Source: Candidatus Uhrbacteria bacterium (GTDB lineage: Bacteria; Patescibacteriota; Patescibacteriia; UBA9934; GWF2-40-263). Taken from it: 64,000 nucleotides of DNA. This document shows, piece after piece, positions 22,063 through 22,125 of this stretch. Positions within the stretch are counted from its first letter, which is position 1. Each line of letters opens with the position of its first letter. The DNA lies in the NCBI GenBank assembly GCA_023246355.1, contig JAHFIQ010000001.1:17887-81886 (forward strand), in the 5' to 3' direction. The position numbers and the translations under genes were made by a program. The notes under the pieces were generated by a model. The model was not told where the DNA came from, made no database searches, and was given only the letters and a program-made list of their open reading frames with translations.

Positions 22063-22125
22063 AAGGTGGATTAGGTAGACGAGGTGGCCAAATCACCTCA
22101 TCCACCTATTCCACCTCATCCACCT
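22063..22125. repeat. TCCACCT 9-nt-periodic micro-array, locus A (inverted arms AGGTGGA... / ...CCACCT x4, ending at the secE ATG)
   Basis: CCACCTCAT-CCACCTATT-CCACCTCAT-CCACCT then ATG, with reverse-complement copies ~20 nt upstream; together they could form a ~24-bp imperfect hairpin. Confidence 0.75.

Follow-up and report, generated by a model that had tools for sequence, protein, structure and literature searches.

The DNA analyzed here is a 64,000-nucleotide window from a groundwater Uhrbacteria genome of the Candidate Phyla Radiation (CPR; Patescibacteria), taken from contig JAHFIQ010000001.1. It contains housekeeping genes, and its best ClpC matches bear the name Candidatus Uhrbacteria. 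It carries dispersed arrays of the heptamer TCCACCT, each core followed by two free nucleotides, in strict 9-nt period. Arrays lie just before the start codons of secE, a deaminase gene, the open reading frame (ORF) at 26787, and clpC, and in frame within gyrB and a DHFR-like gene. The original prediction, made from the letters of the window, had named the first four loci, all of which bear out, but had missed the two gene-internal arrays (gyrB, 18002 to 18045; DHFR-like gene, 31018 to 31059). With the adjoining 10 kb past the window end, which belongs to the same genome (100% identity), the DNA examined for this genome came to 74 kb and the array loci to nine, five intergenic and four coding. 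Contigs of the same species from several samples were all 100% identical to the window and say nothing about variation in copy number or phase.

The arrays and their proximity to start codons can be read directly from the DNA, and shuffling showed that they are not random. The pattern CCACCTNNNCCACCT, with at most one mismatch, matched the window 21 times against 0.20 expected, a count that no shuffle reached, and three-unit arrays were confined to period 9 (16 matches), with nothing at 7, 8, or 10 to 13 and nothing in 30 shuffles. Across 31 units, positions 1 to 7 were conserved at 77 to 100%, and positions 8 and 9 were variable. Each array holds three to six units, made of a 7-nt core and a free 2-nt spacer, with 8-nt units now and then. 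They are thus tandem repeats in the class with 5- to 11-nt units and 2 to 6 or more copies per array, and a single unit recurs at unlinked loci of one genome; they are not the contiguous, identical or nearly identical units of a simple sequence repeat, given that the 2-nt spacer varies. Rfam and tRNA searches at and near the arrays returned no known RNA family and no tRNA.

At secE (forward strand), the array forms one side of a 62-nt hairpin. The predicted, sigma-70-like promoter (TTGCCA-17-TATCCT, 21991 to 22019) shares its TTGCCA/TTGACA...TATAnT layout with the region upstream of secE in relatives and would place both arms of the array within the 5′ untranslated region. Next comes a conserved leader element at 22029 to 22054, consisting of a small GC hairpin (GACCCGAGACGGGTC) and then TTTTAAAATAC, which is older than the array: some 20 patescibacterial relatives (L125 to L170) have it as CCCC-n-GGGG plus TTTTAA(G/A)A(T/C)AC, 8 to 15 nt before the secE ATG. 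No Rfam family matches this element, which looks like a terminator or attenuator of the secE-nusG leader. The array hairpin is inserted between the leader element and the ATG. Its 5′ arm (22064 to 22087) reads AGGTGGA TT AGGTAGA CG AGGTGG, with AGGTGGA at 22064 to 22070, AGGTAGA at 22073 to 22079, and AGGTGG at 22082 to 22087; the 5-nt loop CCAAA lies between 22087 and 22093; and the 3′ arm (22093 to 22125) reads TCACCT CA TCCACCT AT TCCACCT CA TCCACCT (TCACCT at 22093 to 22098, TCCACCT at 22101, 22110, and 22119) and abuts the ATG at 22126. Relatives with 88 to 90% NusG identity have no TCCACCT array in the secE leader, and by this comparison the secE array is a recent, lineage-specific insertion.

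The arrays mislead gene callers, and secE had been called from a GTG at 22084 that opens an in-frame ORF through the array and adds a PHPPIPPHPP extension. It might be supposed from this, and from the deaminase, which does start within its own array (MPPK...), that the arrays are translated as Pro-Pro-X N-terminal extensions or leader peptides. We consider this very improbable. The SecE Pfam match and the N termini of homologues place the start at ATG 22126, neither clpC nor ORF 26787 has a start codon in frame upstream of it, and the arrays occur in all frames. The suspicion that such repeats inflate N termini in the annotation is therefore borne out for secE, whose GTG-22084 extension is spurious, but not for the deaminase, as described below.

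The clpC locus (forward strand) has the second hairpin. The 5′ arm (56760 to 56793) follows directly on the TAA of an htpX-like gene (56757 to 56759) with the units AGGTGGA, AGGTGGA, AGGTAGA, and AGGTGAT at 56760, 56769, 56778, and 56787. A 20-nt loop (CCCCGACTCCGAACTCCGAG, 56794 to 56813) is related to the loop motif GGTTCCGGATTTCGGA of other hairpins (alignment A1). The 3′ arm (56814 to 56853) consists of CACCT, TCCACCA (56821), TCCACCT (56830), CCACCT (an 8-nt unit, 56839), and TCCACCT (56847 to 56853), followed by TCCTT and the ATG at 56859. The inverted AGGTGGA arms that had been noted at secE and clpC are thus present, and both loci can form the proposed long hairpins ending at the start codon. 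The arms are 83 to 94% complementary, and with the partner arm the RNA folds to −35 kcal/mol at secE (z, −5.8) and −42.7 kcal/mol at clpC (z, −3.9). Alone, the pyrimidine array folds at 0 and −0.5 kcal/mol, with less structure than shuffled sequences.

Unlike the secE array, that at clpC appears in other species. Locus L213 (ClpC identity, 81%) has the full hairpin at clpC, and L210 (82%) has the 3′ array only, filling a 45-nt spacer, with no 5′ arm. The Uhrbacteria metagenome-assembled genome (MAG) JACRJW01 (GCA_016235605.1; 89%) has an unrelated htpX-clpC spacer of 261 nt without an array (L209, 1324 to 1584), in which a segment of about 60 nt is duplicated (gctcat(g/a)ttcaaaaccatgttgaggt...). 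In L211 (69%) the htpX-clpC junction is a 4-nt ATGA overlap, and in L212 it is a 26-nt spacer. The odd 8-nt penultimate unit is common to the clpC arrays of the window, L213, and L210, which argues that the three are orthologous. Their fourfold-degenerate clpC sites are only 39 to 41% identical, that is, saturated, yet all of the array cores are intact and only the spacers differ. We take this to mean that the cores are constrained, in L210 even without a complementary arm, so that the clpC array cannot be taken for a neutral microsatellite, and its conservation needs more than pairing to account for it. By this comparison, the clpC array is best seen as an older, retained copy. Neither of the outcomes by which the original prediction would have recognized a neutral microsatellite, random placement and absence from orthologous loci, was found: the clpC array stands at the orthologous locus in two other species, with the fourfold sites saturated.

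The deaminase gene and ORF 26787 are divergently transcribed, and each has an array. That of the deaminase (26654 to 26697, minus strand) has five units, with the start codon (26662 to 26660) embedded in it. That of ORF 26787 (26747 to 26780, forward strand) reads (AAAACCT) TCCACCT TCCACCT TCCACCC, with TCCACCT at 26756 and 26765 and TCCACCC at 26774 to 26780, followed by TTCCTT and the ATG at 26787; folded by itself, it gives 0 kcal/mol. The closest deaminase homologue, in L125, begins MQNIEYPYMPE, and by this likeness the N terminus MPPKYPYMPP is probably real and the start is probably at 26662; if so, the array overlaps the start codon and does not inflate the protein. The spacer between the two genes is 124 nt here versus 40 nt and array free in L125, and we regard both arrays, on the strength of that difference, as recent lineage-specific insertions. 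The predicted promoters of both genes (that of the deaminase being TTGCTA-16-TATCAT, 26738 to 26711, minus strand) sit between the arrays, so neither mRNA need hold both arms, and each would carry its own pyrimidine array. What appears to be an inverted repeat is therefore most simply two sense-strand arrays of divergent genes.

The four coding copies are all in frame and are single arms only, in hypervariable linkers or loops. The arrays of gyrB (forward strand) and the DHFR-like gene (minus strand) are AGGTGGA sense; the first encodes part of a hypervariable acidic linker and the second a variable loop (GGKGGLGGKGG). The 10 kb past the window end adds a TCCACCT-sense array in radA and an AGGTGGA-sense array in the gene for a 194-amino-acid protein. 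The GyrB linker (window 17990 to 18060, residues ca. 575 to 600) is hypervariable, acidic, and of low complexity and precedes a conserved motif, and its length is very different among the homologues of L125 to L200. Where copies lie in frame, essential proteins (GyrB, DHFR, RadA, and NusA) acquire low-complexity inserts that are specific to the lineage.

Together with the sister species, nine intergenic copies in four species were available: secE, the deaminase, ORF 26787, clpC, a virB4-like gene, L037 and L056 of JACRJW01, L210, and L213. The virB4-like copy is a hairpin in the 10 kb past the window end, between the stop codon of a traC-like gene and the virB4-like ATG. In all nine, the TCCACCT strand, which has no G, is the sense strand, and the last TCCACCT core ends 0 to 7 nt before the ATG; forward, start-adjacent placement without a Shine-Dalgarno (SD) sequence holds for all five copies in this genome and all four in the three sister species. 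Where there is a hairpin, the TCCACCT arm is always the one adjoining the ATG. In operons, moreover, the stop codon of the preceding gene is where the purine arm begins (TAA then AGGTGGA at clpC, TAA then GGTAGA at the virB4-like gene, TAG then GTGG in L037, and TGA then AGGTAATTAAGGTGGA in L213), so that the stem pairs stop to start at these four loci. The exception is secE, where both arms lie in the predicted 5′ untranslated region and, there being no upstream ORF, the stop-to-start test does not apply. Four arrays (deaminase, ORF 26787, L056, and L210 clpC) have an intact core without a partner arm. The element is thus sequence defined, locked in orientation, and kept across species at start codons, with an optional stop-anchored arm.

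These rules bear on whether the arrays are sites in double-stranded DNA, either operators (for a response-regulator-like factor, a CtsR- or HrcA-like repressor, or a roadblock) or iterons; the response-regulator-like factor and the iterons had been suggested from the 9-bp period and use on both strands. Conserved heptamers set apart by free spacers, in direct as well as inverted copies, are what protein-binding DNA typically shows; htpX and clpC are well-known members of heat shock regulons; and the arrays are symmetric about the divergent promoters of the deaminase and ORF 26787. Nevertheless, we find this explanation quite improbable. Arrays are found either past the predicted promoters or in the gap that separates the stop codon of one gene from the start of the next in the same direction, and their orientation is tied to the transcribed strand in nine of nine copies. 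A 9-bp phase, with some 8-bp units, puts successive sites on different faces of the helix. Four copies lie inside coding regions, and the downstream genes (secE, the deaminase, clpC, the virB4-like gene, and membrane proteins) are functionally unrelated. As for iterons, no replication (initiator) gene was found near the arrays. The strand rule, the exact anchoring to start and stop codons, and the conservation of the core across species thus argue against double-stranded DNA operators as they do against a neutral microsatellite. Resemblances to the DnaA box (TTATCCACA) and to Chi (GCTGGTGG) were set aside as misfits to the array structure, the strand rule, and the locations.

A second possibility is that the stem-loop is itself the functional entity, as a 5′ stabilizer, an RNase III site, a sequestering hairpin, or a thermosensor; the repeats would then be an easy route to a long stem and the single arrays decayed halves. 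There are indeed stable hairpins at secE, clpC, the virB4-like gene, L037, and L213, and similar architecture recurs elsewhere with other cores. The nusG-rplK spacer, as short as 2 nt and as long as 316 nt in a set of 66 relatives, often contains a long stem of 7- to 9-nt repeats (L129, L131, L135, L138, L156, L134, L171, L132, and L139, among others; z down to −8) that bridges the nusG stop and rplK start around a GCTTCT motif, and in L210 a period-9 hairpin with another core runs from the lemA stop to the htpX start. Against this, the 3′ arm of the hairpins stays TCCACCT even where it faces the recurrent 5′-arm variant AGGTAGA. This absence of covariation implies that the constraint is on the sequence of the 3′ arm rather than on pairing; a formal covariation test on the stems was uninformative, the cores being invariant. 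Furthermore, a structural role would let either arm lie next to the start codon, and cores are intact in the single arrays of four loci, one of them the orthologous clpC locus in L210. Sequestration, which had been put forward earlier, may occur at the secE and clpC hairpins, but with four partnerless arrays retaining the core it is not the whole story. The suggestion of a translational thermosensor is poorly supported, since known thermometers are much less stable than stems of −35 to −43 kcal/mol and these leaders have no SD sequence to mask; in keeping with this, the stems are not weak at 37°C, as those of an RNA thermometer of the ROSE or fourU type would be, and there was no Rfam match. 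Overall, single arrays and the lack of covariation in the hairpins speak against a purely structural element, which we hold to be unlikely.

The third explanation, that of a selfish or mutational dispersed repeat, is the main rival, although we think it somewhat improbable. The arrays would then be a small palindromic repeat, like a miniature inverted-repeat transposable element (MITE) or a REP sequence, or a slippage-prone one, copying itself or homogenized by gene conversion and without function, and selection would merely filter its position and orientation; for example, a purine arm, with its GTG codons and SD-like AGGTG, would be excluded from beside a start codon. The five hairpin copies, from three species, share a unit order (AGGTGGAAT, AGGTGGACA, AGGTAGACA, AGGTGGT) and the loop motif GGTTCCGGATTTCGGA (alignment A1), and from this we conclude that they are homologous copies of one element family, which in turn implies a master copy. 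In-frame copies occur in variable loops of GyrB, DHFR, RadA, and the 194-amino-acid protein and in a NusA tail. In one relative, L180 (15085 to 15226), the tip of a 23S rRNA helix (about position 1575 of the Rfam large-subunit rRNA model) carries an insertion of 142 nt with a hairpin of the same kind, built of (AAGTTTnTA)n and (AACTTTnnn)n arrays, whose AAAGT/ACTTT core also occurs before start codons in that locus. The secE and deaminase/ORF 26787 arrays are lineage specific, array density varies strongly by species (1 per 22 kb in L210), and the secE insert, alone among the copies, is flanked by TA...TA, a possible duplication. On the other hand, the core is identical across four species at synonymous-site saturation, with the clpC copy kept at the same locus; all nine intergenic copies have one orientation; and their placement is exact, the ATG following within 0 to 7 nt and the 5′ arm sitting on a stop codon. 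No transposase and no RAYT/Y1 domain was found among the window ORFs and the called flank genes (74 kb). If the arrays do prove selfish, they would still be a new kind of very small dispersed repeat, and their preference for inserting at stop/start junctions would need explaining.

REP/BIME/REPIN sequences, ERIC sequences, the Correia/NEMIS MITEs, and the Rickettsia palindromic elements are multicopy, species specific, hairpin forming, and transcribed in operons. Hairpins of the Correia/NEMIS and ERIC kinds influence how mRNA is processed and how stable it is, and the Rickettsia elements insert in frame into coding genes. The arrays described here are likewise multicopy, hairpin forming, and sometimes in frame, and they qualify as dispersed homologous hairpins. 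They differ in having arms that are 9-nt periodic, in coding copies that are single arms, in the absence of an associated transposase from the 74 kb, and in abutting start codons in a fixed orientation, whereas REP elements and most MITEs favor the 3′ ends of genes. All intergenic copies adjoin starts, and no preference for 3′ ends or convergent genes was seen, a comparison of low power given that convergent spacers make up only 572 nt of the window (11% of its intergenic DNA).

What, then, might the arrays do at start codons? The question of how start codons are chosen in bacteria that lack SD sequences is acute for the uncultivated CPR/Patescibacteria. Among 38 confident genes of the window, an SD-like 4-mer lies at −22 to −4 of only one (the exception being ORF 47332 to 47631, caaggaggttATG), so that initiation is essentially SD independent. 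T is found at −1 in 31 of the 38 (e.g., 16258, 22944, and 37075 to 38457 on the minus strand), and G is depleted from −16 to −4; these observations point to a strong U(−1)AUG preference with SD-independent initiation. The arrays end in a T directly before ATG, in keeping with this general context, of which the UCCACCU(NN) array is an extreme: a tract of 30 to 45 nt without G and without structure. The motif had been described as no SD complement but as resembling the anti-SD strand. It is indeed not an SD sequence, and the likeness to anti-SD (CACCU) is real, but with 37 of 38 genes lacking any SD-like sequence, SD/anti-SD logic is probably irrelevant; for the same reason, the idea of an anti-SD mimic or SD array, in which AGGUG would pair with the CACCU of 16S rRNA, was set aside.

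We therefore lean, tentatively, toward a fourth interpretation, in which the arrays work in cis on the mRNA as a genus-specific leader module where translation begins, with masking as an option that would couple translation to that of the gene upstream. In this view, the G-free tract would serve as a landing or recognition segment for SD-independent initiation. Its reader could be the 30S subunit (through protein S1) or a protein that covers about 7 nt of single-stranded RNA, for example one with a cold shock domain; we think the latter more likely because the 7-nt core is sequence specific and its 1- to 2-nt spacer flexible. The purine arm (AGGUGGA)n would be optional, and where it starts on an upstream stop codon it would join stop to start and mask the tract. 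A ribosome terminating upstream, or else an RNase III-type or helicase activity, could then open the base of the stem and expose the downstream start, and the outcome would be translational coupling across a spacer that relatives have as a 4-nt ATGA overlap. Coupling through the unmasking of a structured initiation region is known from rpmI-rplT and from the MS2 coat and replicase genes. The likeness here is that the stem pairs the sequence following a stop codon with the region preceding a start, which a terminating ribosome would open; the differences are that there is no SD sequence and that copies of a genome-wide repeat family supply the stem. The family spreads as homologous copies, and single arms also persist in frame where protein loops tolerate them; copies in coding sequence and rRNA, together with the recent insertions and the homology of the hairpins, show spread in the manner of a small dispersed repeat. 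An (UCCACCUNN)n RNA could serve as bait for finding the factor.

Several points weigh against a leader module. No gene for a candidate binder (a cold shock domain protein or S1) was found in the 74 kb of this genome. The arrays are dispensable at individual loci, there being none at secE or the deaminase/ORF 26787 pair in close relatives or at clpC in JACRJW01. Four of the nine copies in this genome are coding, in both orientations, and an initiation element leaves these unexplained. Unless something actively opens them, hairpins as stable as −35 to −43 kcal/mol would be a block to initiation, not a help, and secE has no upstream ORF to which it could be coupled. Finally, the sample is small and its three clpC loci are not independent, and concerted evolution of a multicopy family could itself be a source of the conservation of the core.

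No TCCACCT arrays occur in 80 loci (715 kb) of relatives with 73 to 90% NusG identity. A motif-free lag scan of relatives recovered many arrays of short period: lag 7 gave 46, lag 8 gave 13, and lag 9 gave 10, compared with 0 to 7 at lags 10 to 15, and the cores vary by lineage. Of pairs of arrays lying more than 400 nt apart within one locus, 45% shared 6-mers, versus 19% of pairs from different loci. Some 27 of 62 noncoding arrays end about 10 nt or less from an ORF start, and many of the others are the 5′ arms of such pairs. Among the Uhrbacteria relatives, L212 has a G-free period-9 array before lemA. In the AT-rich relatives, G is below C in only 17 of the 27 start-adjacent arrays, so we do not claim the asymmetry between G-poor and G-rich arms beyond the Uhrbacteria group. 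The AT-rich cores also led us to reject a Rho utilization (rut) site, which would be C rich and free of G; the arrays are, besides, shorter than typical rut sites. The GCTTCT(C) motif noted above is conserved in the apical part of the nusG-rplK spacer (the window, at 22877 to 22943, has cattctcgcc) and may be an L11-operon leader or regulatory site.

A bolder and more speculative extension, which we regard as rather unlikely, is that Patescibacteria without SD-led initiation use lineage-specific “heptamer codes,” that is, arrays of 7- to 9-nt period through which a fast-evolving single-stranded RNA-binding or ribosome-associated factor recruits ribosomes to selected genes or licenses them there. 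Stop-anchored arms would act as a programmable coupling switch, and rRNA (as expansion segments) and protein loops (as inserts) would tolerate these modules. If true, such codes would be a taxon-variable and previously undescribed layer of control over translation initiation.

The closest parallel that we are aware of is the TAACTGA heptamer of marine Beggiatoaceae and some cyanobacteria and Bacteroidetes, direct repeats of which lie directly before start codons in SD-poor regions; their function is unknown (MacGregor 2015, PMC4679880), and S1, Csp, and CsrA have been proposed as binders (PMC4679880). In both cases, a genome-specific short unit occurs at many loci in 2 to 6 copies per array, mostly intergenic, forward, and a few nucleotides before starts; SD sequences are rare, some copies lie within ORFs or ribosomal-protein operons, and the downstream functions are unrelated. 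The present arrays differ in their 9-nt unit (a 7-nt core plus 2 free nucleotides), in place of contiguous perfect heptamers; in their common stop-to-start inverted arms, where a single indirect repeat was reported in BOGUAY; in their CPR host; and in their retention at an orthologous locus across species. In Nostoc PCC 7120, recF and recO have contiguous heptamer repeats of the short tandemly repeated repetitive (STRR) type at or over their start codons (bioRxiv 10.1101/2022.06.06.494920), and long simple sequence repeats were treated by Mrazek et al. in 2007 (as summarized in PMC4679880). Like the arrays here, these are tandem 5- to 11-nt units that are abundant in particular genomes, near or over starts, with units in multiples of three tolerated in coding sequence and a regulatory role suspected. 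However, the Nostoc units are perfect heptamers, no systematic stop-anchored inverted arm is reported there, and cores and hosts are different. Within the library searched, no description of such arrays in CPR/Patescibacteria was found. What sets them apart from known start-proximal repeats is the 7 + 2 unit, the frequent stop-anchored inverted arm, the CPR host, and the retention of an orthologous copy.

An exact-pattern scan of a collection of genome contigs returned mostly unrelated coding repeats (Gly-Gly-X, collagen-like, and Ser/Thr-rich) from many phyla, and 4 of its 120 matches were to the Uhrbacteria MAG JACRJW01. The same kind of scan of viral contigs yielded no repeats other than coding ones of the KGG or collagen type, most of them from bins of giant viruses, and nothing like a phage of this host. 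Ten viral contigs (L218, L223, L227, L228, L267, L274, L295, L297, L304, and L323, from IMG/VR, several of them in giant-virus bins) share a recurrent (TCCACCTTT)n tract followed by ...AAAGGTGGAGCCAAA at apparent gene ends. These are probably (KGG)n C-terminal tails read on the opposite strand, with no kinship to the Uhrbacteria element.

Two minor repeats in the window deserve mention. A two-unit AGGTGG repeat (GAGGTGGCCGAGGTGG, 60661 to 60675) lies inside a PT-TG-domain ORF (59511 to 61712) and may be a chance occurrence or a decayed coding copy. The other, at 38471 to 38503 on the minus strand, is a short period-7 array with another core (GTAGGTT GTAGGTT, after GCAGTAGG GAGTAGG) that lies 8 to 15 nt before the ATG of a radical-SAM/TRAM (MiaB-like) gene (37075 to 38457); its sense strand is purine rich, and a terminator-like hairpin precedes it.

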